This document shows, piece by piece, positions 5,250 to 56,936 of a stretch of DNA of 64,000 bases. The stretch is from positions 32,001 through 96,000 of the IMG/VR virus record IMGVR_UViG_3300031992_000005. One strand, given 5' to 3'. The notes under the pieces are model-generated. The model did no database searches and was not told the origin of the DNA. It saw only the letters and a program-made list of their open reading frames with translations. Position numbers and translations under genes: made by a program. The DNA is from a virus. Every line of letters begins with the position of its first letter. Positions within the stretch are counted from its first letter, which is position 1.

Positions 5250-7040
5250 TTAATCCGCATATGAGCGATTGAAATTCTTTACAATGAAATTCGGCGCCCA
5301 TGTAAAGTTGTTATTGTAGTTAGACCTTCCATAATTGAAGCCATACACTGTATACTTAGGCATGTTCTTCAATACGTCGTTCCATTCTTCCAGATAATCT
5401 TCAAAGTCACTAACTACGATCAGTATAGAATCGGGTCTGTAGTTTTCCTTGAAGTACTGAATACCACGAGCTAGTCTTGTTCCACCACCAGAATGAATCT
5501 TTTCTACTCTTTCACCAGCTTTGATATTTCTGATATGTTCACCCATCCTAGTATTCCAAGTGATGATATCATATAGAAGACCCCTATTGATTGATCGCAT
5601 CTTTCTTGAAATGGTAGCTAAGATTCTGTCAATCAGAACAGTATCCATAGAGCCTGAGATATCAATAAGATATACAATCTTTGGTTTCGTATTGATACTG
5701 AACTTTGGTGTAATGGATGGAACTATAGCCGATCGAATCTTTCCGAGGTTATAGTTTCTCATAACGCTTCTCTCGAAACTGATCTTAAGAACTCTTGATC
5801 GAGTCTTATTAATCACTTCCTCAATAGCATCGTCAACTGGATCTTGCTTAGTAGTTATTCTTACACCGTCAGATCCACCTGAGCTTCCACAACCTGCTCC
5901 TCCACCGGCAGTAATTTGACCTAGTTCACGTGATTTATCTGCAGCGTCACGTTCTGTAGTTCTATGATCCTTATGAGTTCCTCCAGAAAGTTCCATGAAG
6001 TTCGAATCTCTCTTTCCAATGTACTTACTTAGTGCGTCTTTTCCGTTTTCCTTAAAACCACCAGAATTGCTGGTATCATTACCACTAGCACCTCCATTAG
6101 AACCAGAGTTTTGATCTCCCTGTTGATCCTGACCAGATTGTCCTTGACCATCCTGACCATCTTCGATCATACCAAGCTGTCTCATCATATCAGTCAAGCT
6201 TGTCATGCCATTTCCAAGTGCTTGAGCCAATTCATCATCTGTAACGCTGCTAGTATCTCCATTACCGCCGGAGCTAATACTAACCAACATCTTCACAAAC
6301 TGACTTATGTTCTTGATAATCAGAATCAGGTATTCAGGATAAGTTAAGCCAATTGGGAATGGACTACCATCCGAAAGATGATAGAAACTAGGGTGCATAA
6401 ACTTGATCTTAGCTTCTTTGGCCATCTTATCCAGGAGTTCATCAATCTTTTTCTTAATATGATCTGGAACGTTTTCTTGATCTCTAATTCCCTTTAATAC
6501 CTCTTCCTCCACTTTTGGTAGGGTTGAAGTTACTCCATTCTGCATAGTTTCAATACAGTCTAAGTCAAGAATCACTGAGTTAACTTCAAAATCCATTGCA
6601 ATATTATGGAGGGAGTGATTGAGAACTGGATCATCTATGATTCGATTAATCAGATCTTCCGCAAAATCAATCTTACATTCATTATTAATTCGATCGATTA
6701 ATTCTCCTCTATAGATTTTCAGAACACTTGCTACTTTTCTATCAAGCTCTTCATAAATACCATCAAGATGTGCAAGATAGATGTGACCATACTCATGCAT
6801 CTTAATGAAGTATTCAGTAGTTTGAAGAAGCTTATCATTGCCATCTTTATCCAACTTGGCTACAACCACATTATACAATGTTTTTCCTCCACTTGCATCT
6901 GCAAATTTCCAGGAGTAACCAAGTTCTGGATTATAAGGATCAAACGGCTTATTTAAGTTTTCTATTAACCGATACTGACCCCTATTGTAAGCTCTTTTAA
7001 CCAGGTTTTCAATAGGTCTGAGCTCATTAACAGTTTTCAT
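5250..7040 (-). CDS. vWA-domain protein with N-terminal HExxH metallopeptidase-like domain (DUF2201-like)
   Basis: HEYGH (HExxH) near the N-terminus and a Gly/Gln/Ser-rich linker. The C-terminal vWA MIDAS motif is IVYLIDISGSMD, followed by SGGGT and VVSDFED. It sits next to an AAA+ ATPase, as in MoxR/vWA pairs. Confidence 0.8.
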   Translation of the reverse strand: MKTVNELRPIENLVKRAYNRGQYRLIENLNKPFDPYNPELGYSWKFADASGGKTLYNVVVAKLDKDGNDKLLQTTEYFIKMHEYGHIYLAHLDGIYEELDRKVASVLKIYRGELIDRINNECKIDFAEDLINRIIDDPVLNHSLHNIAMDFEVNSVILDLDCIETMQNGVTSTLPKVEEEVLKGIRDQENVPDHIKKKIDELLDKMAKEAKIKFMHPSFYHLSDGSPFPIGLTYPEYLILIIKNISQFVKMLVSISSGGNGDTSSVTDDELAQALGNGMTSLTDMMRQLGMIEDGQDGQGQSGQDQQGDQNSGSNGGASGNDTSNSGGFKENGKDALSKYIGKRDSNFMELSGGTHKDHRTTERDAADKSRELGQITAGGGAGCGSSGGSDGVRITTKQDPVDDAIEEVINKTRSRVLKISFERSVMRNYNLGKIRSAIVPSITPKFSINTKPKIVYLIDISGSMDTVLIDRILATISRKMRSINRGLLYDIITWNTRMGEHIRNIKAGERVEKIHSGGGTRLARGIQYFKENYRPDSILIVVSDFEDYLEEWNDVLKNMPKYTVYGFNYGRSNYNNNFTWAPNFIVKNFNRSYAD

Positions 7041-36247: not shown

Positions 36248-36727
36248 ATGAACAATAGAAATTATTTAGGATTCTTAAAAGAAAAACAGCAATTGTTTAA
36301 TAGAATTGGAATCAAGTGTAAAAGTTTAGATGAACAAGTTTACAAGCTTGAACAAAATGAAAAAGATCTAAGTATTCTTGTAGAAGATCTCAGCGAAAGA
36401 GTTCCATTCAGGCCATTAGTGAAATGTGGAGTAGTAGGTTACCCATTCATCTTAGTGGGAATTGATGTAACTCATGAGAATGTTGCAGTACAGTTGATAA
36501 ATACTTTCAACCATATAAAATTTGAAACAACAATCGATAAGGTAAGACTGTACTTGAGATCTCTAGAGAATATGACAGAGGAAGAAAAACTGGAGGAAGA
36601 AAGACTCCATGATCCTCGAATCTGTATCTCTGAATTAATAACATTCTATAAGAAGAATAACCTCGATTATAGAGGCCTTATCCCAAGAGGTCTTGCAATC
36701 GAACAAATCCCAGAAAACCATGAATAA
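36248..36727 (+). CDS. family A small protein, diverged outlying copy
   Basis: Central LYLRSLENMTEEEK and C-terminal LDYRGLIPRGLAIE match the anchors of the 45-55 kb array. Confidence 0.7.
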   Translation: MNNRNYLGFLKEKQQLFNRIGIKCKSLDEQVYKLEQNEKDLSILVEDLSERVPFRPLVKCGVVGYPFILVGIDVTHENVAVQLINTFNHIKFETTIDKVRLYLRSLENMTEEEKLEEERLHDPRICISELITFYKKNNLDYRGLIPRGLAIEQIPENHE

Positions 36728-36848: not shown

Positions 36849-37082
36849 ATGACTCTTGTAAAAAAATTAGGAGAAAAGTTATATAACTGGACAAATAAAA
36901 ACCTACACTTCCTAATTGGTATTGCAATAATAGGAATTGTCTGTTCTATTATTGGACACTATGGAACAATGGGATTTGATCTCAGGTGGTTTTTTGGATT
37001 TGAATTACCATTATACCTATTTCTCCTTTGGGCTATTTTTAAAATAATGAAAATTTTTAAAAATAATGGATCAAAAAGATAA
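36849..37082 (+). CDS. small two-TM membrane protein (77 aa)
   Basis: Hydrophobic helices FLIGIAIIGIVCSIIG and LPLYLFLLWAIFKIM. ATG at 36849. Confidence 0.55.
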   Translation: MTLVKKLGEKLYNWTNKNLHFLIGIAIIGIVCSIIGHYGTMGFDLRWFFGFELPLYLFLLWAIFKIMKIFKNNGSKR

Positions 37083-37527
37083 GGAAAAATTAATTCAGAT
37101 TATTTGTGCAATGTTTCCCTACGGTTTAAACTGCTACTACACAATAGATGAAAAGTGGCATAGTATTACCGGAGTAGAAAATGATGCGGTGAGGTTATTG
37201 GGATCTAACGGTCGTCATGAATTTGTTGAAAAGTGGGAAGGAGATCTAGATACAATCAAGATCGGACTTCGACCACTATCTACAATGACCGAAAAAGAGA
37301 AGGAAGAACTATATACAGATCCAGATACTGATTATCTTTGTCGTGCAACAGTAATTGTTCCAGAAAATGAAGAAATTTATTTTAGGTTTGTTGATACCAA
37401 AATCGAATTTCTTTATAAAAACGTTACATTCTTCTTTAAGAAGAAATTTGATATATTGGGTCTAATAGAACAAGGTTTAGCAAAAGAGTATAACTATGAT
37501 AATGATAAATCCTTGGGCAGGATATGA
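37066..37527 (+). CDS. family A small protein, diverged outlying copy
   Basis: KLIQIICAMFPYGLNC, IGLRPLSTMTEKEKEEL and FDILGLIEQGLAKE are collinear with the array anchors. Confidence 0.7.
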   Translation: MDQKDKEKLIQIICAMFPYGLNCYYTIDEKWHSITGVENDAVRLLGSNGRHEFVEKWEGDLDTIKIGLRPLSTMTEKEKEELYTDPDTDYLCRATVIVPENEEIYFRFVDTKIEFLYKNVTFFFKKKFDILGLIEQGLAKEYNYDNDKSLGRI

Positions 37528-42030: not shown

Positions 42031-44142
42031 ATGATCAACTCTGAAATTATACTAGAGAACATAGTAAAAATCGTAAAAGATGAGAAAAACAGTGATATTG
42101 GTTTTTCTAAAATCTATTCTTACTTATGTGAAAATTTCCCCGAACTCAAAGAGAACGAGGATAAGAAAATAAGAAAGGAATTGATTGATTTCTTGCAAGA
42201 AACCATTGACAATGTTGGTGAATATTCTCCCAATAATTGGGAAAACAAAGCTAAAAAATGGATTGCTTGGCTAGAAAAGCAGAGCAGACAGAAGGCTGTT
42301 GATTGTGAAAATACCCAACAGAAGGATATTGTTCAAGAACCAGAACCAGAGGATGAGAGAATAAGAAATTGGTGTATTTCACATTTTAAGGAATGTATTA
42401 GAGTCTCGAAAATTAACGTGGAATACCAAAAATATCTTAGTAACAAAGTAATCCCTTGGCTTGAGAAGCAAGGTGAACAAAAGAATCTTGCACAAAAACC
42501 AATAACAGGGGATGAGAGAATAAGAAAAGGTCTCATCCATGCGGTATCTGGAACATTGAAAGGTAACACTTTGTTCGGCACTGACGTAACAAGAGAAGAG
42601 GCGTTATCTTGGCTTGAAAAGCAAGGTAAAAATTCACAATGCAGATCAATCATAGAAGCGTGGAAAGATATGCGTTTAGAAGTGTATCAACAAGCGAGTG
42701 GTAATAGGCATGAGCCTAATTATTCTGATGACAGTACTAAGATGTTTTCGCTCAATGACATTGACGAAATAATTGAAAAGATAAACGAGCAAACAGAAAA
42801 GCAAGACTACGAATCTCAGGACATCACAGAATCAAAACCAGCAGTAGGAACTTTGGCTGATGAAATTAAGTTTCCCTTTAAAGCCAAGGTGAAAAAGAGC
42901 AATAAAATTATCGTAATTACAGGTGGACAATTAGACGATGCTCAACCAATAGAATCTCGCTCATACCTAGCATATACATCTGACATAACTGATGGATATA
43001 AGGTATATAAGCCAGAGGAATTAGAATTTATAAAACAACCTGGGTTCAAAGTAGGGGACTGGGTGGTAAATAAATTAGGTGATGCCTGGCATATAGATAG
43101 TTTCTATGGGGAAAACTATCAAGTTTCTAATGGAAAAGGAAACTTTAGTTACTTCCCAATATCCAAGCAAGATGAAATGCACCTCTGGACGATTCGAGAT
43201 GCAAAAGAAGGTGATGTGCTTGTAGATGCGTATGGAAACATAGGTATATATGAGAAATGTGATTATTCTGATTGGAGGTCTTATTGTTCTTTAGGGCATA
43301 ACGGAGGTTTTCAACATTTTAAAACAGAACACGAAAATGAAAAAACGTATCCAGCCACCAAAGAACAGCGTGATGCTCTTGAAAAGGCTATAACTAATGC
43401 AGGTTATTCATGGGATGGAGAGTTAAAGAAAAATACGAAGTTTAGTAAAGGGGATTGGATTTACCGAGGAACAGGAGATCCTTATTTTGTAGAATCAGTC
43501 TTTAACGAGCAATATGAATTGTGCTCGGGATTTGGGTATCATTTCAACAAGGGAACTGATGAAGTTGATAGCGATTACAGGCTCTGGAATATAAATGACG
43601 CCAAGCTTGGTGATATTCTTGCGGATGATGATAAAACAATCGCCCTTTATGAAGAACAATCCACAAAGACATTCTTTCACGTCCTTTGCTATTACTGTAA
43701 TAAGACATTTGTACCGAAAAAGGGTACACTTGCTGTCCTAGGTTTTCACCCAGCAACCAAAGAGCAAAGAGAATTTTTCAGTAATGAACTAAAAAAGTCA
43801 GGATATAACTTGGATTTAGAGAAAAAACAACTGGCTGATCAGCCTAAACTCACTAAGTTTGAGCAGTCCTTAAAGCACATTATTGAAGAAGCCTTAGATG
43901 ATGGAGATACACATAATCTTAAGGCTGATGCAGAACTACTTCTATCGGTAGCAAATCAGGATAGAGCTAAGATTGAGTTAACCATAGAAGAAGAAGATGC
44001 CCTCGACCAGGCTATTATATCACTTAATGATATGTTTGATGATAGTCAACCTGAAACTTGTTATGCAGGTCATCACGTACCCTTTGATGTAGCAGCTAAA
44101 TGTCTTAGTAGCTTAAAAGATAAGATTCTAAACAGTAAGTAA
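42031..44142 (+). CDS. family B large repeat protein (703 aa; three [DE]E[KR]IR-WLEKQ units plus two ~130-aa modules)
   Basis: ENEDKKIRKEL..WIAWLEKQ, EDERIRNW..VIPWLEKQ and GDERIRKGL..LSWLEKQ are followed by two modules carrying LWTIRDAKEGDVL/YPATKEQRDAL and LWNINDAKLGDIL/HPATKEQREFF. Confidence 0.75.
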   Translation: MINSEIILENIVKIVKDEKNSDIGFSKIYSYLCENFPELKENEDKKIRKELIDFLQETIDNVGEYSPNNWENKAKKWIAWLEKQSRQKAVDCENTQQKDIVQEPEPEDERIRNWCISHFKECIRVSKINVEYQKYLSNKVIPWLEKQGEQKNLAQKPITGDERIRKGLIHAVSGTLKGNTLFGTDVTREEALSWLEKQGKNSQCRSIIEAWKDMRLEVYQQASGNRHEPNYSDDSTKMFSLNDIDEIIEKINEQTEKQDYESQDITESKPAVGTLADEIKFPFKAKVKKSNKIIVITGGQLDDAQPIESRSYLAYTSDITDGYKVYKPEELEFIKQPGFKVGDWVVNKLGDAWHIDSFYGENYQVSNGKGNFSYFPISKQDEMHLWTIRDAKEGDVLVDAYGNIGIYEKCDYSDWRSYCSLGHNGGFQHFKTEHENEKTYPATKEQRDALEKAITNAGYSWDGELKKNTKFSKGDWIYRGTGDPYFVESVFNEQYELCSGFGYHFNKGTDEVDSDYRLWNINDAKLGDILADDDKTIALYEEQSTKTFFHVLCYYCNKTFVPKKGTLAVLGFHPATKEQREFFSNELKKSGYNLDLEKKQLADQPKLTKFEQSLKHIIEEALDDGDTHNLKADAELLLSVANQDRAKIELTIEEEDALDQAIISLNDMFDDSQPETCYAGHHVPFDVAAKCLSSLKDKILNSK

Positions 44143-44148
44143 ATTTAC

Positions 44149-44178
44149 TCCTCCCTTAACGGGGAGGGATTCTTTTTT
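44149..44178 (+). terminator. intrinsic terminator
   Basis: TCCTCCC-TTAACG-GGGAGGG hairpin followed by ATTCTTTTTT, just after the stop at 44142. Confidence 0.65.
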
Positions 44179-44846: not shown

Positions 44847-45082
44847 TCAGTAGAGAAGAAGCTAAGAGACAATGCCTTGAATGGGTAGATAAAGAAATTT
44901 CAGAAAAAGGCGAGGATTCTATATATTGCTTATCTCCTTGTATTGGAAAAAATAGCTGGACTCTAAAAGAATATAGAGATGCAGTTATTAACGATGTACC
45001 AATGGAAGGTTGCATAGACAATCCAATAGACGATTATCTTAACTATATAAAATGGAAGGATGAACATGGACGAGGAAAATAA
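44843..45082 (+). CDS. hypothetical protein (79 aa)
   Basis: ATGA overlap with the upstream gene. Confidence 0.5.
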   Translation: MISREEAKRQCLEWVDKEISEKGEDSIYCLSPCIGKNSWTLKEYRDAVINDVPMEGCIDNPIDDYLNYIKWKDEHGRGK

Positions 45083-45476
45083 GTTATTGAGATTTCTCAG
45101 TATGGCTTTACCTTATGGAGTTTTTTGTATAAACTCCGAAGATGAGAATAGTAAAGCCTATAAGCTAAAATCAATTAATAAGCATAAAGGATTATGGTAT
45201 TATGGGTTTGATGGATTTAGCTGTCTTAAACCATTACCGTATCTCCGCCCATTATCTTCTATGACCGAAGAAGAGCATAGTAACTTATTCAATGCTTATC
45301 ATTACTTAGAGGTGAAAGTAGCAAAGTCAACAGGAGATTACTTAAAAGCGGCTTATATAGGTGATGATGCTAAGTATAAGTGGCTTCTTGAAAATAAGTT
45401 TGACTTTCTAGACTTAATTTCAGATGGATTAGCTATTGAAATTACTGAGGAAAACAATCCGTATAAGAAGTTATGA
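45060..45476 (+). CDS. family A small protein, array copy 1
   Basis: KLLRFLSMALPYGVFC; LPYLRPLSSMTEEE; KWLLENKFDFLDLISDGLAIEITEENNPYKKL. Confidence 0.8.
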   Translation: MNMDEENKLLRFLSMALPYGVFCINSEDENSKAYKLKSINKHKGLWYYGFDGFSCLKPLPYLRPLSSMTEEEHSNLFNAYHYLEVKVAKSTGDYLKAAYIGDDAKYKWLLENKFDFLDLISDGLAIEITEENNPYKKL

Positions 45477-45685: not shown

Positions 45686-46064
45686 ATTATGCACCTCAAT
45701 TGGACAATCTAACAACCTGAGATCATTAGGACTTGATATCCATACCGCCGACACTTATTGGTGGTTTTCAGGCGATAAGTTCTATATGGGGACGATGGAT
45801 GATGGTGATTTCGACGAAAAAGCTGATCAACCTTCTTGGAGCTTAGCTGCACTGGAAAAGTTAATTCCGCCAACTATAACTGATGATGAAGGTGAAACTT
45901 ATAAAATTTCTATAACAAAAAATGAACAAAGTAAAAAGTGGACTGCTTGCTATGTAAACAAAGAGCACGATCAGGTCTGCTGTATCTTCTGTGAAGAATC
46001 TCCGGACCTAATAGATGTTTTTTATAACACGGTATGTATGTTACTACTTGCGAAAAAAATATGA
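45663..46064 (+). CDS. family E protein (paralogue of 54153..54575)
   Basis: Shares S.GQSNNLRSLGLDIHTADTY and QPSWSLAALEKLIP with SAEQSKRLVELGIDVNTADM and EPAWSLSALLDLLP. Confidence 0.6.
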   Translation: MAIQTVNKLCTSIGQSNNLRSLGLDIHTADTYWWFSGDKFYMGTMDDGDFDEKADQPSWSLAALEKLIPPTITDDEGETYKISITKNEQSKKWTACYVNKEHDQVCCIFCEESPDLIDVFYNTVCMLLLAKKI

Positions 46065-46432
46065 ATACTGCAGAAGAATTTATAAAAAAGTATCCTGTAG
46101 GTACATTAATTTCATACATAGAAGGAGTACAGTATGTACGATCTGGTGCAAGAACTATCTTCAAAATAGGTAGATATGAACGGCGCACGAATGATCCTTG
46201 GGGATATTATATGTATGGGACCTACTGCGGATTTAACTTTCAAACAACAAGTTATAAGAAAGAATATTCTACATCAGACTTACCAAAGTGGCGATGTATC
46301 ATTTGCGAGACTGACCCCTTCGGTACTTCTTTAGGAATACTATCACATAAATTTAACGACGTTAGACTTGCAAACGACCTTGAAACTAGTATATTCAATG
46401 ACTGCATAACTAACGGAAGAGTAATCTCATGA
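46061..46432 (+). CDS. hypothetical protein (123 aa; start refined)
   Basis: The ATG at 46061 forms an ATGA overlap with the upstream stop (MNTAEEFIKKYPVG...). Confidence 0.55.
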   Translation: MNTAEEFIKKYPVGTLISYIEGVQYVRSGARTIFKIGRYERRTNDPWGYYMYGTYCGFNFQTTSYKKEYSTSDLPKWRCIICETDPFGTSLGILSHKFNDVRLANDLETSIFNDCITNGRVIS

Positions 46433-46863
46433 CTAAACTAGAAAAGCAGTTAATACTTCAGGATCTCTGTTCGAGATTATTATGCGGTGTAGTTTGTAGA
46501 ATCACTTTTACTTACAGTAATGAAACTACATTTGGCGAAGAAGTTGAGAATGAGGTTGATGATACAATTAGTATGATCAACATTAAACGAGAAACAGTTT
46601 TCGCGGACTACTTAGGCCGTGAATTTGATATTGAAAATGTTAAGCCTTATCTTCGTTCAATGGATGATATGACAGAGGAAGAATATAAAGAATATTGGAA
46701 TATTGATAATCGGTCATATTCTTGTCCAATGGTCTGTGCACATATCCCCGCTTCAGAAAGAATAGATTGGCTTAATAAACGTCACTTTGATTACCGTGGA
46801 CTTATTGGAAAATGCCTGGCCATTAAAGTTGATGAAATTAATAATCCTTATGATAAACTATAG
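46429..46863 (+). CDS. family A small protein, array copy 2
   Basis: KQLILQDLCSRLLCGVVC; VKPYLRSMDDMTEEE; IDWLNKRHFDYRGLIGKCLAIKVDEINNPYDKL. Confidence 0.8.
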   Translation: MTKLEKQLILQDLCSRLLCGVVCRITFTYSNETTFGEEVENEVDDTISMINIKRETVFADYLGREFDIENVKPYLRSMDDMTEEEYKEYWNIDNRSYSCPMVCAHIPASERIDWLNKRHFDYRGLIGKCLAIKVDEINNPYDKL

Positions 46864-46879
46864 ACATTCCAAACCTAAG

Positions 46880-47392
46880 ATGACTGAACAGTGTAAGCAG
46901 CTATTACTTCAAGATCTCTGCTCTAGACTACCATATGGTGTAAAAGTGTATAACACAAGCTTCGCAGAGCCGTATCAGGTACAAACATTATTCGGTAGAA
47001 AGTCAGAGGACGAGTTTATTATGAAAGAAACTTATAAATCTTTTGACTTAAATAACCGTCCAACTCGTATAAAAAATTATACTGGATACTTAGATCGTTT
47101 AAAGCCATATCTTCGACCTATGTCAAGTATGACTAAGGAGGAGAAATTGGAATATATATCCATTATAGATGGAACGCGATGGACTACCACCGTAGGTTTA
47201 GAGGAGAAAATAATTCTATCCATTGACTTAGTAGAGTGTAAAGCCGAAGATGGGACACCTGATAATATATACGATATCATTCAAATGACTCCCATTGATT
47301 GGCTACTAGAGAGACATTTTGATATTAGGGGTCTTATCTATAAAGACCTTGCTATTAAAGTGACAGAAGAAAATAATCCTTATAAAATATGA
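46880..47392 (+). CDS. family A small protein, array copy 3 (start refined)
   Basis: ATG at 46880 (MTEQCKQLLLQDLCSRLPYGVKV); LKPYLRPMSSMTKEE; IDWLLERHFDIRGLIYKDLAIKVTEENNPYKI. The track's upstream extension is an out-of-frame read of copy 2. Confidence 0.8.
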   Translation: MTEQCKQLLLQDLCSRLPYGVKVYNTSFAEPYQVQTLFGRKSEDEFIMKETYKSFDLNNRPTRIKNYTGYLDRLKPYLRPMSSMTKEEKLEYISIIDGTRWTTTVGLEEKIILSIDLVECKAEDGTPDNIYDIIQMTPIDWLLERHFDIRGLIYKDLAIKVTEENNPYKI

Positions 47393-47796
47393 CACAGGAA
47401 GAAAAATTGCTTTTATTAAAAAGTCTTTGTGAAATGTTGCCTTATAAGGTGAAAGTAGAAATCATTTCATATGGACAAGAGACTTTGAAACCTTGGTTTG
47501 GGGAGTTATCTTGTAAAGACTTAGATTGTTTTATAGTTGATGTAGCATACAAAAGTGTTAAGCCATACCTCCGTCCGATGTCAAGCATGACTGAGGAAGA
47601 AGAAAAAGAGTATAGGAAGACTCAAATTACAAAATGGATTAAAAGTGTTGATTGTGCAGGTGGAGGATACTATGACCATAGAGACACCTTAAAAACATTT
47701 GATTGGCTAAAAGCTAATCATTTTGATTATAGAGGTTTAATCAAGAGAGGTTTAGCCATTAAGGTAACTGATGAAAATAATCCTTATAAATCATGA
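47389..47796 (+). CDS. family A small protein, array copy 4
   Basis: MTQEEKLLLLKSLCEMLPYKVKV; VKPYLRPMSSMTEEE; FDWLKANHFDYRGLIKRGLAIKVTDENNPYKS. ATGA junction. Confidence 0.85.
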   Translation: MTQEEKLLLLKSLCEMLPYKVKVEIISYGQETLKPWFGELSCKDLDCFIVDVAYKSVKPYLRPMSSMTEEEEKEYRKTQITKWIKSVDCAGGGYYDHRDTLKTFDWLKANHFDYRGLIKRGLAIKVTDENNPYKS

Positions 47797-48134
47797 CTCA
47801 GGAGGAGAAAAAAATTTTGCTCAAAGATCTTTGTGGTAGATTACCTTATGGAACAATTTATGATATTACAATTGGTGGGGTAACCTATGTAAAAGTATCA
47901 TTAAATTCATTTTATTATGGTTTAATTGAAAAAAATTTTAATAATGGGCAATTACAATCAATAGTTCCATATCTTAAAAAAAATGATATGTCATTTGAAC
48001 ATAAAGGTTTTTATTTAGAAAATCTTGATTATGTAATTGATTATTATAACTCTAATCATATTGATTATAGAGGATTTATTGAGAAAGGACTAGCTATTGA
48101 AGTGACTAATGAAAATAATCCATATAAGTTATGA
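47793..48134 (+). CDS. family A small protein, array copy 5 (central anchor degenerate)
   Basis: MTQEEKKILLKDLCGRLPYGTI. The central anchor has decayed to VPYLKKNDMSFEHKG. C-terminal NHIDYRGFIEKGLAIEVTNENNPYKL. ATGA junction. Confidence 0.8.
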   Translation: MTQEEKKILLKDLCGRLPYGTIYDITIGGVTYVKVSLNSFYYGLIEKNFNNGQLQSIVPYLKKNDMSFEHKGFYLENLDYVIDYYNSNHIDYRGFIEKGLAIEVTNENNPYKL

Positions 48135-48532
48135 CACAAGAAAGTAAAGAACTGATTTTAAAGGATATATGCGGGAGACTCCCTTATGGAACAATTGTTC
48201 AAATATCTCTTTATAGAAATGATGAAAAAAGAAGTGATATTGAATTAGATCCTCATGTAACGGAGAATATTTGGGAAATAATTGATAAATATCATGCGCT
48301 TCCCTATCTACGTCCAATGTCAAGCATGACGGAGGAAGAAAAGATAATACAAAAAACATATATTTATCATTTTTCAGGAAATAATCTTCCTAATTATGAA
48401 GGTGATTTTGTATTTGAAGATGAAGTACATGAATACATTGATTGGCTAAACGCTAATCACTTCGACTATAGAGGCCTTATCGGAAAAGGACTTGCAATCG
48501 AAGTAACGGAAAGTAATAATCCTTATGAATAA
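48131..48532 (+). CDS. family A small protein, array copy 6
   Basis: MTQESKELILKDICGRLPYGTIV; LPYLRPMSSMTEEE; IDWLNANHFDYRGLIGKGLAIEVTESNNPYE. ATGA junction. Confidence 0.85.
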   Translation: MTQESKELILKDICGRLPYGTIVQISLYRNDEKRSDIELDPHVTENIWEIIDKYHALPYLRPMSSMTEEEKIIQKTYIYHFSGNNLPNYEGDFVFEDEVHEYIDWLNANHFDYRGLIGKGLAIEVTESNNPYE

Positions 48533-48953
48533 TATAATGCAGGAAGATAAAAAAATACTTCTCCAGGATCTTTGTGCAAGATTACCGTATGGAGTAAAAA
48601 TAACAGATGGTTTGAATGTAATCAAAGCAGACCCATTTATCAGTATTGGTGTATTTGTTTATGATGGTAAGTGGAAACCCTATCTCCGTCCAATGTCAAG
48701 TATGACGGAGGAAGAGTATGAAACACTGAAGTCTTTAAGTACTATCTATATTCCCACTGATAGTAGAAATATAGGATTTGAAGATTACGGTATACTAGTA
48801 TTTACGCACCATCTCACCAATAATACTTATAGTTTCAAATTAAACATAAAAGTAATTGATTGGCTTCTTGAAAATCATTTTGATTACAGAGGTCTTATTG
48901 AGAAAGGCCTTGCTATAAAAGTGACAGAAGAAAATAATCCATATAAGTTATGA
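48525..48953 (+). CDS. family A small protein, array copy 7
   Basis: KKILLQDLCARLPYGVKI; WKPYLRPMSSMTEEE; IDWLLENHFDYRGLIEKGLAIKVTEENNPYKL. Confidence 0.85.
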   Translation: MNNIMQEDKKILLQDLCARLPYGVKITDGLNVIKADPFISIGVFVYDGKWKPYLRPMSSMTEEEYETLKSLSTIYIPTDSRNIGFEDYGILVFTHHLTNNTYSFKLNIKVIDWLLENHFDYRGLIEKGLAIKVTEENNPYKL

Positions 48954-49417
48954 CAGAACAGGATAAAAAATTACTCTTAATAGATCTCAGTGCAAGGTTT
49001 CCATATGGAGTCATTGTTAGGCATGCAGATCATTTAGTTGACTCCGATGGTAATTATACTGGACAATTTTGGTATAAACGAGGTTATCTATATGATATTT
49101 GTAGGATAGATAATATAACAACTACAATTATCGAAAGTGAAGGTAGCGATGAAGAAGGTAATGAGCATATTTGTGACCTAGAAAGATCTCTGCCTTATCT
49201 CCGCCCAATGTCAAGTATGACGGAGGAAGAGATAAAAGAATTTTATAAAATTGAAAATATAATACCAAAGATGGGATATATTTGCCCGTCAAAAGATTGG
49301 CATTTTACTACCAATGGTTTTGATTGGCTTAATGCTAATCACTTCGACTACAGGGGTCTTATTGAGAAAGGACTTGCTATTGAGGTAACTGATAAAGATA
49401 ATCCATACATATTATGA
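48950..49417 (+). CDS. family A small protein, array copy 8
   Basis: MTEQDKKLLLIDLSARFPYGVIV; LPYLRPMSSMTEEE; FDWLNANHFDYRGLIEKGLAIEVTDKDNPYIL. ATGA junction. Confidence 0.85.
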   Translation: MTEQDKKLLLIDLSARFPYGVIVRHADHLVDSDGNYTGQFWYKRGYLYDICRIDNITTTIIESEGSDEEGNEHICDLERSLPYLRPMSSMTEEEIKEFYKIENIIPKMGYICPSKDWHFTTNGFDWLNANHFDYRGLIEKGLAIEVTDKDNPYIL

Positions 49418-49557
49418 CAAAATATTTAATTATTTTAAATCCAGTAGATGGAATATATCAAGTTGATATTGATTTATATGATTCAGAAGAAGCTGCTCGA
49501 CTTAATTCCTTAATTGATGAAGAAGATATTTATAAAATAATTCCAATAGAATTTTAA
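49414..49557 (+). CDS. hypothetical acidic miniprotein (47 aa)
   Basis: Hand translation gives MTKYLIILNPVDGIYQVDIDLYDSEEAARLNSLIDEEDIYKIIPIEF. ATGA overlap with copy 8. Confidence 0.4.
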   Translation: MTKYLIILNPVDGIYQVDIDLYDSEEAARLNSLIDEEDIYKIIPIEF

Positions 49558-49560
49558 AAC

Positions 49561-50040
49561 ATGACAAAAGTCAGGATAGAACAAGATAAAAATTTACTAT
49601 ATCAAGACATTTGTGCAAGATTGCCTTACGGTGTGATAGGGCAAATTAGCATAGAAGTACTTGACGGAACCTATGATATAAATAGCGGACACCTTGAATA
49701 TAAAGATGTTGATGTAGATGTTGAATTACTTGGTATACAAGAGGAAGAGATAATCTTTTCGACGATTAATGAAACATATGACGTAAATACATGTACATAT
49801 TTAGACTTTACTCCATATCTCCGTTCGATGTCTAGTATGACTGAGAAAGAGAAGGAAGAGTATTGTAATCTACAATGTATGTTTCTTTATAGCAGCCAGT
49901 ATCCAGTAACAGAAGCTCATAAACTGTTTGATTGGCTTCTTGAGAATCATTTTGATTATCGTGGCCTTATTGAAAAAGGTCTTGCCATTGAAGTTAATGA
50001 AAGTAATAATCCGTATAAAGAGTATGATACAAGAAAGTAA
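49561..50040 (+). CDS. family A small protein, array copy 9
   Basis: KNLLYQDICARLPYGVIG; FTPYLRSMSSMTEKE; FDWLLENHFDYRGLIEKGLAIEVNESNNPYKEYDTRK. Confidence 0.85.
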   Translation: MTKVRIEQDKNLLYQDICARLPYGVIGQISIEVLDGTYDINSGHLEYKDVDVDVELLGIQEEEIIFSTINETYDVNTCTYLDFTPYLRSMSSMTEKEKEEYCNLQCMFLYSSQYPVTEAHKLFDWLLENHFDYRGLIEKGLAIEVNESNNPYKEYDTRK

Positions 50041-50413
50041 AAAATTACTAATTCAAAACCTTTGTGCAATGTTACCTTATGGAGTAATGTGCCAAGTAGA
50101 CGTTGGATGCGCGGGTTTAGATGATGGAAAATTAGAAGAGATTGATATTCCAGAGGAGCGTGTGAGATTTGCTGATGATGGTTATTGGGATGCAGATATA
50201 GAAGATGTTAAACCTTATCTTCGTCCAATGTCTAGTATGACAGAGGAAGAGAAGAAAGAGTACCATAAGTTATGCGATAATTACTATGACGTATACTTTG
50301 ATAGTGTTGCTAGCCTGGACTGGCTCAATGCTCATCATTTTGACTACAGGGGCCTTATTGAAAAAGGTCTCGCTATTGAAGTTAATGAAAGTAACAATCC
50401 TTATAAATTATGA
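50024..50413 (+). CDS. family A small protein, array copy 10 (start refined)
   Basis: ATG at 50024 (MIQESKKLLIQNLCAMLPYGVMC); VKPYLRPMSSMTEEE; LDWLNAHHFDYRGLIEKGLAIEVNESNNPYKL. Confidence 0.85.
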   Translation: MIQESKKLLIQNLCAMLPYGVMCQVDVGCAGLDDGKLEEIDIPEERVRFADDGYWDADIEDVKPYLRPMSSMTEEEKKEYHKLCDNYYDVYFDSVASLDWLNAHHFDYRGLIEKGLAIEVNESNNPYKL

Positions 50414-50505
50414 AAGACAAAGAAAAAAAATGTTATTGTTATCCCTTCATCTTATATGAGAGATTATGATAATAACAGAGAGGAAATCTTCAAATTAGGG
50501 AAGAA

Positions 50506-50856
50506 ATGGCTACAAAACAAGCCATTGCCGAAGATTATGACCTAGACAATATCATCACTAATGACATGGGTGAGATATGGCATGAGGTTGGTGGTCAGGA
50601 TGGCATGTACGATAATTTCCCAATCAAGAGGGTGTATCGTGACAATGGAACTGTCAGAGTATATGCTATTGATAGTGGAGGTGGAGTTGCCATTATTGCA
50701 GGGAAAAATCAGTTTCAGATTCTTACACTTGGAGAAGATGACGGCTGGCACTTTCTTAATTCACGTAGAATATATGAAACATTCTATGGTAGTAAAACGG
50801 ACTTTGTTTATCTGATTTCAGAAGCATTGTCTTTATTTAATAATATCGAATTATAA
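50506..50856 (+). CDS. hypothetical protein (116 aa), not family A
   Basis: Intact ORF with no family A anchors. Confidence 0.55.
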   Translation: MATKQAIAEDYDLDNIITNDMGEIWHEVGGQDGMYDNFPIKRVYRDNGTVRVYAIDSGGGVAIIAGKNQFQILTLGEDDGWHFLNSRRIYETFYGSKTDFVYLISEALSLFNNIEL

Positions 50857-51788: not shown

Positions 51789-52250
51789 ATGACTCAAACC
51801 AAATTAACCGAACAAGGTAAGCAGTTACTCTTAATGGATCTCTGTGCGAGGTTGCCTTATGGAGTAATGTGCGATATGGGATTAAAACATCCATTGCAAT
51901 TACAAAGAATTCTTGTGGATAAACTTGATGGTAATTTACTGGATTTTTATGAAGATGGTAATGATTATCAAGTATATTTAAGTGAAGTTAAGCCATATCT
52001 CCGTTCAATGTCAAGTATGACAAAGGAAGAAAGTATAGAATTACAAACGATTCTAAATGATTGGTGGAATAAAGAGCTTTTTACATTAACAGAAGAACCA
52101 ATGATAGAATATGCATTGTCTTCTATTAATTATACTCTTAATCCTACATTGTTTGATTGGCTTAATAAGAAACATTTTGATTATCGTGGGCTTATTAAAA
52201 AAGGCCTTGCTATAAAAGTAACGGAAGAGAATAATCCTTATAAACTATGA
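51789..52250 (+). CDS. family A small protein, array copy 11
   Basis: GKQLLLMDLCARLPYGVMC; VKPYLRSMSSMTKEE; FDWLNKKHFDYRGLIKKGLAIKVTEENNPYKL. Confidence 0.85.
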   Translation: MTQTKLTEQGKQLLLMDLCARLPYGVMCDMGLKHPLQLQRILVDKLDGNLLDFYEDGNDYQVYLSEVKPYLRSMSSMTKEESIELQTILNDWWNKELFTLTEEPMIEYALSSINYTLNPTLFDWLNKKHFDYRGLIKKGLAIKVTEENNPYKL

Positions 52251-52675
52251 CAGAACAAGGTAAGCAGTTACTCTTGATAGATCTTTGTGCAAGATTACCT
52301 TATGGAGTAAAAGTATGGTATAAATATGGTGCATGGTTTTCTGAAAAGTTTGCAACATCAATAAGATTGGCTGATGAAAAAATTGCCCTTTCCTCTAAAT
52401 TCAATAAAGAAGGCGATTGGTTTCCCATCGAAGAAGCAGGGAAAATTCTAATTAAACCTTATCTCCGTCCGATGTCAAGTATGACTGAGGAAGAAAAAGT
52501 TCAATTATCTCAATATGCTTGCATTGGAGAAGATTTAAATGGAGAATTTATAGACGAAGTACAAAGAAAGGATTGTGCGCCATATATTGATTGGCTCAAT
52601 AAACACCACTTTGACTATCATGGGTTGATTGAGAAGGGTTTAGCGTTAGAAGCACCAAAAGGAATGTATAACTAA
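52247..52675 (+). CDS. family A small protein, array copy 12
   Basis: MTEQGKQLLLIDLCARLPYGVKV; IKPYLRPMSSMTEEE; IDWLNKHHFDYHGLIEKGLALEAPKGMYN. ATGA junction. Confidence 0.85.
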   Translation: MTEQGKQLLLIDLCARLPYGVKVWYKYGAWFSEKFATSIRLADEKIALSSKFNKEGDWFPIEEAGKILIKPYLRPMSSMTEEEKVQLSQYACIGEDLNGEFIDEVQRKDCAPYIDWLNKHHFDYHGLIEKGLALEAPKGMYN

Positions 52676-52688
52676 AACTTACAAAAAG

Positions 52689-52805
52689 ATGCCTTATATA
52701 TATTTTCCTATTGAATTTTCTTCTTATGTAGATTATGTTAAATACCTAAAAGAAAAAAGTTTCGCTATTGACGTAACAGATGTAATTAACTCATATAAGT
52801 TATGA
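52689..52805 (+). pseudogene. relic of a family A C-terminus (38 codons)
   Basis: Hand translation ends ...KSFAIDVTDVINSYKL-stop, a decayed GLAIEVTEENNPYKL anchor that still keeps the ATGA junction to copy 13. Confidence 0.5.
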
Positions 52806-53248
52806 CAGAAGAAGAAAAAGAAATATTGTTAAAAGACCTTTGTGGTAGATTACATTATAGAGTCCTTGTTAGTTACAAAGGCTTAATATACCCACTATTC
52901 AGTGTTGTCCCTACACAACATTTTCAAATCACGCTTGATAGTAGTAAATATTGTGGATTAGTGCATATCAGTCTTGATGATGATGGTGAAAAGCCAAAAC
53001 CTTATCTTCGTCCGATGTCAAGTATGACTGAGGAAGAGAAGAGGGAATATTTCTCATTTATTGGTGGTGTGAGACCATTTGACTGTGATTTTTCTGCATA
53101 TCCGATAGAGTACAAATTCGTTTATGAACATGATATAAATAGTTATATTGATTGGCTCAACAAACACCACTTTGACTATCGTGGATTAATTGAAAAAGGC
53201 CTCGCCATTGAAGCACTAGAAGGAATGTATAATTTAAAAATGGAATAA
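52802..53248 (+). CDS. family A small protein, array copy 13
   Basis: MTEEEKEILLKDLCGRLHYRVLV; PKPYLRPMSSMTEEE; IDWLNKHHFDYRGLIEKGLAIEALEGMYN. Confidence 0.85.
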   Translation: MTEEEKEILLKDLCGRLHYRVLVSYKGLIYPLFSVVPTQHFQITLDSSKYCGLVHISLDDDGEKPKPYLRPMSSMTEEEKREYFSFIGGVRPFDCDFSAYPIEYKFVYEHDINSYIDWLNKHHFDYRGLIEKGLAIEALEGMYNLKME

Positions 53249-53795: not shown

Positions 53796-54140
53796 ATGAT
53801 ACCGGAAAGTAAAAGGCTATTAATCACAGACCTCTGTGCAAGACTACCTTATGATACTATAGTTAGTGTTGCAGAAGGAGGGATTGATGGGGTTCAATGG
53901 AATAAGTCAACATTAAATTTCTATCTACTTCATCAGATCGAAGAGGAAGATGGTTGGGAATTCATTAAACCCTATCTACGTCCAATGGATGATATGACAG
54001 AGGAAGAATCTGAAGAATTTTCCAATATGGAAATCGTAGGTTACTCTAACTATGATTGGCTAAATGCCCATCACTTTGACTATAGAGGCCTTATCGAAAA
54101 AGGACTTGCAATAGATTGTACTGGTTTAAATATTTACTAA
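53796..54140 (+). CDS. family A small protein, array copy 14
   Basis: SKRLLITDLCARLPYDTIV; IKPYLRPMDDMTEEE; YDWLNAHHFDYRGLIEKGLAIDCTGLNIY. Confidence 0.85.
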   Translation: MIPESKRLLITDLCARLPYDTIVSVAEGGIDGVQWNKSTLNFYLLHQIEEEDGWEFIKPYLRPMDDMTEEESEEFSNMEIVGYSNYDWLNAHHFDYRGLIEKGLAIDCTGLNIY

Positions 54141-54575: not shown

Positions 54576-54976
54576 CACAAGAAGGAAAATTTCTTTTATT
54601 GAAAGACCTAAATGCAAGGTTGCCTTATGGAGTTTATGTAGAGCATACAACCACAAAAATAAGAGGCAAATTAAAGGGTATGATGTTTGAACATATCTAC
54701 AATGACACAGATTCTATTCAAGATATAAATGCTTGGGCAATGTTTTTCGGGGATGAATATGTGGATGCTACATATTTTAGGCCAATCTTACGTCCAATGT
54801 CAAGTATGACAGAGGAAGAAAGAAAGGAGTATAAGCATCTTGTAGCATTTAGTGGTAGTCCTGATGGAGCAACAAATTTTACAGACTGGCTAAATGCTAA
54901 TCACTTCGACTATAGAGGTCTTATTGAAAAGGGTTTAGCTATTGAAGTAACAGAAAAGAATAATCCATATAAATAG
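54572..54976 (+). CDS. family A small protein, array copy 15
   Basis: MTQEGKFLLLKDLNARLPYGVYV; FRPILRPMSSMTEEE; TDWLNANHFDYRGLIEKGLAIEVTEKNNPYK. Confidence 0.85.
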   Translation: MTQEGKFLLLKDLNARLPYGVYVEHTTTKIRGKLKGMMFEHIYNDTDSIQDINAWAMFFGDEYVDATYFRPILRPMSSMTEEERKEYKHLVAFSGSPDGATNFTDWLNANHFDYRGLIEKGLAIEVTEKNNPYK

Positions 54977-56063: not shown

Positions 56064-56433
56064 AGATTACCTAATAGTAGCACTAATACTGGCACTTTCT
56101 ACTCTAGCACTATTAATTATAGGATTTTTTATAGGAATTCCCGTATATCTTTTTCTAACTTGGAATATTTTTATAGGATGTGTCTTATCCTCTATTTACC
56201 TAATAGTCTTTTTTGAATTATTCTTTGGTTCTAAGGAAGAATATGTTGAATTTGAAGTAGGAGATGTATTGAAATACTTGGAAGAAGATGCTAGAACATG
56301 GCAAGGAAAAAACTATGTAATAGTAAAAAATATTGGTGAATTAGATGGGAAAAAGATCCTAGAATTTGAAGATGGTACTTGGGAATATGCACATAAAGCT
56401 AATCACAATTATTATAAAATAGGAAGAAAATGA
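56053..56433 (+). CDS. membrane-anchored protein (126 aa)
   Basis: Two N-terminal TM helices followed by a soluble domain. Confidence 0.55.
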   Translation: MKIKDYLIVALILALSTLALLIIGFFIGIPVYLFLTWNIFIGCVLSSIYLIVFFELFFGSKEEYVEFEVGDVLKYLEEDARTWQGKNYVIVKNIGELDGKKILEFEDGTWEYAHKANHNYYKIGRK

Positions 56434-56936
56434 ATAAGAAAAAAGTACTATTTGCCGACTTAGATGGAACATTAATCGAGACGGCAACAGGAAAAACATT
56501 TCCTCTTGGTATCTGGGATATGAAATTTAAGTTTGATGTCCTAGATGCTATAAAAAAGTATAACTTCGAAGGTTTAATAATCGTCACTAATCAAGGTGGC
56601 ATTGAAAAAGGATTAGTTAATGAGAAACACTTTGTAAAAGCAAAGATGGCTTATGTAACTAAATCTTTGGAAGAATATTTACATATTCCAGTCAAATTTG
56701 TTTACTGTGCGTCCAATGACAAGGATTGTGGGCATAGAAAACCTAATACCGGTATGTTAGAAAACGCTTATTGGAAGTTCATTATTAATCAATGGAAAAT
56801 GAATATCAATAAAAGTGATATGCTTATGATAGGTGATGCTAGTGGTAAACCTGGCCAATTCTCTGATTCAGATAAAAAGACCGCAGAGAATTATGGCATT
56901 GACTATATGGATATCGAAGATTTTAAGGCTCTCTAG
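56430..56936 (+). CDS. HAD-IIIA phosphatase, polynucleotide 3'-phosphatase (PNKP/GmhB)-like
   Basis: Motif I FADLDGTLIET, then ATGKTFP..IWD (as in PNKP-type 3'-phosphatases), motif II IIVTNQGGI, K in HRKPNTGM, motif IV MIGDASG...SDSD. Confidence 0.7.
   Translation: MNKKKVLFADLDGTLIETATGKTFPLGIWDMKFKFDVLDAIKKYNFEGLIIVTNQGGIEKGLVNEKHFVKAKMAYVTKSLEEYLHIPVKFVYCASNDKDCGHRKPNTGMLENAYWKFIINQWKMNINKSDMLMIGDASGKPGQFSDSDKKTAENYGIDYMDIEDFKAL

Follow-up and report, generated by a model that had tools for sequence, protein, structure and literature searches.

A tandem array of two-cassette genes in an uncultured rumen jumbo phage, probably diversified by short-patch recombination at conserved coding anchors

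The DNA described here is a 64,000-nucleotide (nt) stretch of a viral genome, positions 32,001 to 96,000 of IMG/VR record IMGVR_UViG_3300031992_000005, and is referred to below as the window. At 46429–50413 it carries nine head-to-tail paralogous genes on the + strand, c1 to c9, in which conserved anchors alternate with variable cassettes. An earlier note, made from the letters alone, had read this region as a tandem array of paralogs joined by stereotyped ATGA overlaps, with anchors of near-identical DNA that could serve to shuffle the cassettes. The tandem array was borne out, with nine copies and one unrelated open reading frame (ORF) of 47 amino acids (aa). Its extent had been given incompletely. 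A hidden Markov model (HMM) built from the copies recovered 15 copies (c0–c14) at 45.0–55.0 kb, two distant members at 36–37.5 kb and one relic; c0, c10–c14, the relic and the distant members all lie outside the region first described. At least 17 small related genes are thus carried by the phage, and all copies but the relic are complete ORFs with an ATG start and a stop. The features of the locus, in window coordinates, are as follows.

36248–36727, + strand: distant family member, 159 aa (HMM E = 3e-15)
37066–37527, + strand: distant family member, 153 aa (HMM E = 5e-19; matches phrog_10841)
44149–44168, + strand: terminator-like hairpin upstream of the gene block
45060–45476, + strand: c0, outlying copy of 138 aa, about 950 nt upstream of the main array (HMM E = 8e-43)
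46034–46432, + strand: non-family ORF of 132 aa, without Pfam or PHROG match; its TGA overlaps the ATG of c1 (ATGA)
46429–46863, + strand: c1, 144 aa; ends in TAG, followed by a 16-nt gap to c2
46880–47392, + strand: c2, 170 aa; ATGA overlap with c3
47389–47796, + strand: c3, 135 aa; ATGA overlap with c4
47793–48134, + strand: c4, 113 aa, degenerate; ATGA overlap with c5
48131–48532, + strand: c5, 133 aa; ends in TAA
48537–48953, + strand: c6, 138 aa (ATG at 48537) or 142 aa (start at 48525); ATGA overlap with c7
48950–49417, + strand: c7, 155 aa; ATGA overlap with the 47-aa ORF
49414–49557, + strand: unrelated 47-aa ORF inside the array, present in all related strains
49561–50040, + strand: c8, 159 aa; C-terminal end frame-shifted (…NNPYKEYDTRK, stop), overlaps c9 by 17 nt
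50024–50413, + strand: c9, 129 aa; the copy used for the structure model
51789–52250, + strand: c10, 153 aa; ATGA overlap with c11
52247–52675, + strand: c11, 142 aa; alternative C-terminal tail (…LEAPKGMYN, stop)
52688–52805, + strand: relic, 38-aa ORF (MPYIYFP…SFAIDVTDVINSYKL, stop); ATGA overlap with c12 (HMM positions 122–145, E = 0.1)
52802–53248, + strand: c12, 148 aa; alternative tail (…EALEGMYNLKME, stop)
53796–54140, + strand: c13, 114 aa
54572–54976, + strand: c14, 134 aa
56925–56950, + strand: terminator-like hairpin downstream of the gene block

The window is AT-rich (32–41% GC) and phage-like in content; PHROG annotations matched by its proteins are DNA topoisomerase II large subunit, ATPase, nucleotidyltransferase and HNH endonuclease. 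Rumen metagenomes contain contigs, up to 353,905 bp long, that encode proteins identical to window copies, and the source is therefore an uncultured rumen jumbo phage. Neither megablast with the array and with a structural-looking region nor tblastn with c7 gave any match among 50,697 GenBank phage records, so that no cultured relative exists within that set.

The copies, of about 115–170 aa, share one plan: an N-terminal anchor, a first variable cassette (V1), a central anchor, a second variable cassette (V2) and a C-terminal anchor. The N-terminal anchor, M-T-x-E-x-K-x-LLL-x-DLCARLPYGV, corresponds to a helix (LLLKDLCARLPYGV). The central anchor reads KPYLRPMSSMTEEE and the C-terminal anchor DWLNxxHFDYRGLIEKGLAIEVTEENNPYK. 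Two members depart from this plan. In c4 the central anchor has decayed (PYLKKNDMSFEHK) and V2 is nearly absent, with the N- and C-terminal anchors intact; this copy may have dropped out of the exchange pool. The relic in the spacer between c11 and c12 keeps a decayed central anchor and the C-terminal anchor, and records a contraction or decay of the array.

An AlphaFold2 model of c9 (predicted local distance difference test score, 91.4) consists of an N-terminal helix, a five-stranded barrel formed by V1, and C-terminal helices. The conserved KPYLRP is the last barrel strand of the model, in which V1 is predicted to be a small SH3/Tudor-like barrel of five strands. As a side observation, a Cys is conserved in the N-terminal anchor (DLCARL) and His residues in the C-terminal anchor (NxHHFDY), and many V2 cassettes also contain Cys or His (CPMVCAH and VDCAGGGYYDH, for example), so that scaffold and cassette could conceivably be bridged by a metal site.

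The central anchor does recur as DNA, a 35-nt motif being found seven times with at most 3 mismatches where none is expected. The anchor identity of 85–95% proposed in the earlier note applies to a subset of central anchors and was otherwise overstated, as shown by a pairwise identity profile of c1–c9, with which an independent repeat finder agreed.

Central anchor, 39 nt: median pairwise identity 80%, range 36–95%
C-terminal anchor, 90 nt: median pairwise identity 73%, range 63–83%
N-terminal anchor, 54 nt: median pairwise identity 60%, range 43–76%

Just 17% of pairs reach 85% in the central anchor, and none do so in the C-terminal anchor. Codon identity at identical amino acids is 0.48–0.55 against 0.39–0.44 expected. 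Within the anchors, third-position identity within the codon box at identical amino acids is 0.55 against 0.46 expected from window codon usage, so that most of the anchor DNA similarity is due to constraint on the protein together with an AT-rich codon bias. Beyond this, exact tracts are still in modest but real excess. Tracts of 20 nt or more are identical in twelve copy pairs, the longest being the 29 nt common to c11 and c12. When synonymous codons were redrawn from genome or family usage, 2.4–4.3 such pairs were expected and none of 60 replicates reached 12.

These values bear on the possibility that the array is a static set of ancient paralogs, with anchors alike through scaffold constraint alone and without recent recombination. 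The near-expected third positions and the C-terminal anchor identity of only 63–83% are in line with it. The same is true of the protein sequences: window copies are 30–46% identical (aa) to their best in-window paralog and 53–66% identical to homologues in other contigs, a range that leaves aside hits of at least 85%, which are probably this phage or close strains. As closer homologues lie outside the array than inside, there is no array-wide homogenisation (concerted evolution). In addition, nine related contigs carry the same array. The excess of exact tracts of at least 20 nt is a first point against a static array; stronger ones come from comparisons between phages and between strains.

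Between phages, the proposal that the anchors act as homology tracts for shuffling of cassettes was supported, although not by the anchor near-identity on which it had been built. Splitting of 572 non-redundant family members by HMM register, with clustering of V1 and V2 at 60% identity, gave 420 V1 and 350 V2 clusters. V1 and V2 assort almost freely across these homologues: of the 81 V1 clusters with several members, 71 are combined with two or more V2 clusters, and 85 of 91 V2 clusters with two or more V1 clusters, the mosaic share being somewhat inflated by the removal of identical proteins before counting. The V2 type of c1 (KEYWNIDNRSYSCPM...) has 48 homologues, which carry 40 different V1 clusters. 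Among the fetched loci, a shared V1 was accompanied by a shared V2 in 6 of 112 pairs.

The DNA pattern assumed in the earlier note, with similar anchors around unalignable cassettes, is reversed between phages. Shared cassettes are 90–100% identical at the nucleotide level and the adjacent anchors 55–90%. The shared patches measure about 190–250 nt and are the sole megablast-alignable DNA in 8 of the 12 locus pairs checked, where they amount to 0.9–2% of the locus. Near-identity reaches a median of 15–20 nt into the flanking anchors, compared with 0–5 nt for unrelated pairs (Mann–Whitney p 1.6e-3 to 2e-12), and ends at variable positions, within 0–50 nt of the central anchor and 15–104 nt of the C-terminal anchor. 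The genes are thus mosaics with breakpoints in the anchors. V2 is not co-inherited with the C-terminal anchor; the exchanges are therefore double-ended patches, as in gene conversion, and not single crossovers. Both the free assortment and the sharing of cassettes with 90–100% identical DNA argue against a static array.

Individual homologues combine cassettes of different window copies. A protein found on seven contigs (P0067, locus L244) joins the V1 of c5 to the V2 of c3, with nucleotide identities of 76–100% per 10-codon block to the former (mostly at least 87%) and 80–87% to the latter. Besides the c5 V1 in P0067 and its relatives, the V2 of c3 is joined elsewhere to at least two further V1 types. 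Another protein (P0245, locus L247) has the V1 of c9, the V2 of c6 and a tail of the c11/c12 type, and the V2 of c6 occurs elsewhere with c9-like, c10-like and other V1 types (P0245, P0003, P0116). The genes around both P0067 and P0245 are arranged differently from those in the window. Sharing of a cassette was observed in 1 of 795 pairs within a locus against 0.47% of pairs between loci, which suggests a non-redundant cassette repertoire in each genome.

Exchange is also visible between strains of the window phage. The nine related contigs are 97.8–100% identical to the window and have the same array order. Copy number, which the earlier note had suggested comparing among relatives, is likewise identical in the contigs at 98–100% identity, while other phages have 1–27 copies per 20 kb. 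Changes of copy number by unequal crossing-over are indicated only indirectly, by the relic, by two-copy fusion proteins and by the copy-number differences among phages.

One of the nine, L001, is 97.8% identical to the window over 16.9 kb. In c14 the N-terminal anchor, V1 and central anchor of the two strains differ at 2 sites, and V2 is replaced (KEYKHLVAFSGSPDGATNFT vs QEYGLVLCDELSINQY). The replaced tract, 54824–54910, extends from just after …GAGGAAGAAAGA into the DWLN codons of the C-terminal anchor, and what separates the alleles is replacement of the whole segment, with an indel. Each allele is also present in other phages, beside unrelated V1 cassettes. Independent contigs carrying them number 4 and 3+1, and there is a third haplotype.

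Smaller differences between strains come in clusters and, with c0 and c14 excluded, are about three times as dense in anchors (35 in 2583 nt) as in cassettes (13 in 2823 nt; p = 3.6e-4). Six of them fall within 19 nt of the C-terminal anchor of c3 (47757–47775), and the central anchor of c5 (48310–48345) has three alleles among the strains. Several of these micro-conversions match paralogs. The C-terminal patch of c5 at 48469–48483 agrees in L001-type strains with c6/c7 at 4 of 4 variable sites. The N-terminal anchor of c10, with its micro-conversion tract at 51815–51824, is identical over 23 nt to c11 in the window strain and over 26 nt to c7 in L001, whose allele was probably donated by the N-terminal anchor of c7. 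Four other samples also contain the L001-type anchor alleles. The outlying c0 differs from L001 at 25 positions over the whole gene (6%), compared with about 0–2% for other copies.

The replacement of the c14 V2 between strains of 97.8% identity and the clustered anchor allele switches that match paralogs largely refute a static array, which is now considered very unlikely. Saturated synonymous sites together with an identical array in all relatives had been named in advance as the pattern that would count against shuffling. Half of that pattern was found, and it is overridden by the direct evidence of recombination.

A technical origin also has to be weighed for mosaics of this kind. All comparison sequences are short-read assemblies, and with anchors repeated up to 27 times per 20 kb an assembler could jump at an anchor between paralogs or co-occurring strains and produce chimeras. 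Nevertheless, the same mosaic proteins are present on 7–8 contigs from different samples and assemblers, and both c14 alleles as well as the L001-type anchor alleles were recovered in independent JGI, ENA and Logan samples. A mis-join would give a single switch that runs on, whereas the patches seen have two switches about 200 nt apart. Exact anchor identity extends over at most about 50 nt, below the final k-mers of 119–141 that several contig names (k141_…, k119_…) suggest. Assembly chimerism is highly improbable on these grounds.

The small size and sharp bounds of the exchanged unit (about 200 nt) could instead point to a dedicated machine, namely site-specific exchange of the shufflon or integron kind, a diversity-generating retroelement, or co-conversion by a homing endonuclease. 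An HNH endonuclease-like gene is located in the window at 5250–7040, away from the array, and the family's more than 10,000 clusters hint at an efficient process. Nevertheless, breakpoints are spread through the anchors and not confined to one site, all copies are on one strand, and no meaningful inverted repeats are present. Among family members, 429 of 429 were on the query strand and inverted repeats were at chance level, which is not the picture of a shufflon. As for a retroelement, the window holds no near-identical template copy of any cassette, so that a variable repeat paired with a template differing at adenines is missing from it, and the cassettes differ by whole-segment replacement, not by adenine-targeted substitutions. 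No recombinase or reverse transcriptase was seen beside the arrays in a scan that took in few of the window ORFs. A dedicated machine is consequently regarded as unlikely.

The reading preferred here, with a probability of roughly 0.8, is that a combinatorial family of two-cassette genes arises by homologous short-patch recombination at the coding anchors, acting among paralogs as well as among co-infecting phages. The anchors would be kept similar by protein constraint and AT-rich codon usage, with exact DNA tracts of about 15–29 nt as a by-product. Short-patch gene conversion with both ends in anchors could use these exact tracts, and the partners in exchange would be paralogs within an array and, most of all, different phages. 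Such exchange would account for the small conversion tracts within anchors, for the replacement of a whole V1 or V2, and for the near-free combination of V1 with V2, each genome keeping a non-redundant cassette set. Recombination enzymes would presumably carry out the exchange during co-infection, selection would favour diversity of the repertoire, and the proteins may act as a variable binding or anti-host repertoire.

Several observations weigh against short-patch recombination at the anchors as the source of this diversity. The anchors in the window fall short of near-identity, with synonymous sites that approach saturation. Window copies resemble homologues in other contigs more than one another, and every strain at 98–100% identity has the same number and order of copies. 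The comparison data are all metagenome assemblies, and the counting of non-redundant proteins favours mosaics. No recombinase could be tied to the process, few window ORFs having been scanned. Sequence profiles from Pfam, NCBIfam, PADLOC and PDB give no significant match for the family, and Foldseek returned weak partial barrel matches (KOW/Tudor domains, E about 0.05 or weaker) together with uncharacterised viral proteins.

A more far-reaching interpretation can be put forward tentatively. The scaffold may show two exchangeable recognition modules, V1 and V2, in a community-wide combinatorial repertoire, in which patches of about 200 nt are traded among otherwise unrelated rumen jumbo phages and kept non-redundant by selection. 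If true, this would give phages an equivalent of variable-receptor or anti-defence arsenals, and their own recombination machinery, with its use of very short homology, may assist the trade.

The array behaves like known shuffling systems and is a member of none. Recombination at conserved motifs that swaps hypervariable segments is already known. The closest process is that of the gp38 tail-fibre adhesins of T2/T6-type phages, in which conserved glycine-rich motifs separate hypervariable segments (PMC3157838, citing Tetart et al., 1998, J Mol Biol 282:543). In these adhesins, phages swap variable segments with one another by recombining at the conserved motifs. Motif-bounded hypervariable segments swapped by recombination in the motifs are also what was found here, and in both cases short conserved motifs form a structural core. 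It is the mechanism that is shared, not homology: Pfam and fold searches found no sequence or fold relationship of gp38 to the family. The gp38 adhesin is encoded by a single virion gene and has four segments and glycine-rich motifs, whereas the present family has 15–27 tandem copies per locus among small non-structural-looking genes, two cassettes, and anchors that are not glycine-rich. The array's neighbours are small ORFs without known function and do not form a tail-fibre module.

In T4-type phages, intergenic promoter/stem-loop repeats (PeSLs) move whole genes (PMC2839356, PMC4122927). There, as here, short repeats among small variable genes are recombination points that reshuffle related large phages. 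The repeats of the array differ in being anchors within coding sequence, and what changes hands is part of a gene, a cassette of about 200 nt. The array junctions showed neither stem-loops nor terminator-like motifs.

Paralogs with a conserved framework flanking variable segments, in which short-patch conversion leads to mosaics and a combinatorial repertoire, are likewise involved when antigenic-variation families undergo segmental gene conversion (pilE/pilS of Neisseria and vlsE of Borrelia; PMC4534519) and when polymorphic toxin systems replace cassettes (PMC3482391). In those systems, silent or orphan cassettes feed one expressed locus, whereas the copies described here are complete ORFs with their own start and exchange is mainly between different phage genomes. 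A single expression locus with promoterless partial donors was not found. Nor do the copies have the organisation of polymorphic toxins, with a toxin C-terminal domain after a pre-toxin motif and an immunity gene next to it; array copies follow one another directly. Pfam, NCBIfam and PADLOC detected no toxin, immunity or surface-antigen domain.

Jumbo phages hold many unexplained small genes, and this family, whose clusters exceed 10,000 and whose copies reach 27 in 20 kb, is among the larger ones. Sub-gene cassette exchange at conserved coding anchors, visible even between strains of one phage, is a clear generator of its diversity and one that can be tested. The array offers a concrete system in which very-short-homology recombination can be measured in natural phage populations, and the anchors could be used as universal primers for surveys of cassette diversity in rumen and gut viromes. 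The question raised is what selection lies behind a non-redundant two-module repertoire, host defence or the targeting of host factors being the obvious guess.

The family corresponds to phrog_10841 (PHROGs v4), which was matched by 5 of 5 tested window copies (E 4.5e-10 to 4.4e-6) and by neither of two non-family ORFs. Each match spans one anchor region, for example profile positions 3–71 or 129–160 of 163, and the PHROG carries no functional annotation. A profile search of 1.84 billion representative proteins gave 10,103 clusters, counted at 50% identity, with E ≤ 1e-3, and 4,098 with E ≤ 1e-10. The family was found on uncultured rumen or gut jumbo-phage contigs only. In IMG/VR, loci with 1–27 copies per 20 kb, always on one strand, are carried by rumen contigs of up to 413 kb. 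Among species-representative genomes, the family is restricted to contigs of metagenome-assembled genomes, mostly rumen-labelled and with conflicting taxonomic labels; those of 286–410 kb are most likely mis-binned phage. A full-text search of the published literature found no description of the family, its arrays or cassette shuffling. Nine proteins of about 240–390 aa (P0001, P0002, P0121–P0125, P0131, P0132) have two family-profile matches each and look like read-through fusions of adjacent copies, as if the overlapping stop had been lost.

The stereotyped ATGA junctions proposed in the earlier note were found at 6 of the 10 junctions in or bordering 46429–50413: upstream ORF/c1, c2/c3, c3/c4, c4/c5, c6/c7 and c7/47-aa ORF. 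The four exceptions are c1/c2 (TAG and a 16-nt gap), c5/c6 (TAA, with the next ATG 4 nt on), 47-aa ORF/c8 (3-nt gap) and c8/c9, which overlap by 17 nt because the C-terminal end of c8 is frame-shifted. The pattern is neither peculiar to the array nor family-wide. ATGA is the commonest junction type in the rest of the window too (17 of 87 same-strand junctions, about 20%), and a 4-nt overlap was seen in only 11 of 48 adjacent family pairs over all loci, the window's own pairs included. The 28-nt junction motif was confirmed, with five occurrences at up to 2 mismatches (47372, 47776, 48114, 48933, 52230) against 0 expected in shuffles. An MTQE or MTEQ start, said to begin most copies, is present in 5 of the 9 copies c1–c9. 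The first four nucleotides are ATGA in about 91% of family members, Thr being the usual second residue.

The head-to-tail genes form one long rightward block and are, judging from their arrangement, probably co-transcribed. Between the two terminator-like hairpins, the sole + strand site is a weak one with 3 G-C pairs at 47700–47720, inside c3. Sigma-70-like promoter matches were not above those in shuffled sequence. Translational coupling by termination–reinitiation is possible along the array, where stops and starts overlap or nearly abut, as in coupled operons, with ATGA at 6 of the 10 junctions and the others within 17 nt. The ATGA overlaps and the lack of internal terminator-like sites fit such coupling, but the commonness of ATGA genome-wide weakens the argument. 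Coupling based on Shine–Dalgarno sequences found no support, window starts pairing with the anti-Shine–Dalgarno sequence no better than random 20-mers. Starts lacking this signal are typical of Bacteroidota phages. An internal start or internal duplication, suggested by the likeness of the MTQEE N-terminus to MTEEE in the central anchor and by a GGAGG-like string, was also considered and was dropped as no consistent downstream start was present.

The surroundings of the array were compared with those of other phages. A search for syntenic relatives found no homologues of a 146-aa neighbour gene, and the contig carrying P0088 has no synteny with the window. A metagenome scan with c9 gave mostly paralog-level hits among the matches listed; these included a 204-kb contig (L234) that is partly syntenic with the window and has a different gene order. 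The gene block ends with a PNK3P-like gene at 56430–56936, homologues of which (59–63% identity) are present in about 80 human-gut phage contigs of about 50–107 kb, so that this single gene is common to a quite different phage group.

Some differences between strains lie outside the copies themselves. The gene after c9 encodes 116 aa in window-type strains and 133 aa in L001-type strains (window 50413–50510; 10433–10834 of L001). The change looks like a small indel near the A-rich stretch at about 50420–50495 and not like gene replacement. Upstream of the array, a 703-aa ORF at 42031–44142 contains internal repeats (WLEKQ… three times, …PATKEQR… twice), and its weak homologues adjoin family copies in other phages. 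This ORF is the most diverged stretch between strains, with 88–96% identity and many gaps, and the region of 43.0–45.5 kb is generally more diverged than the rest.

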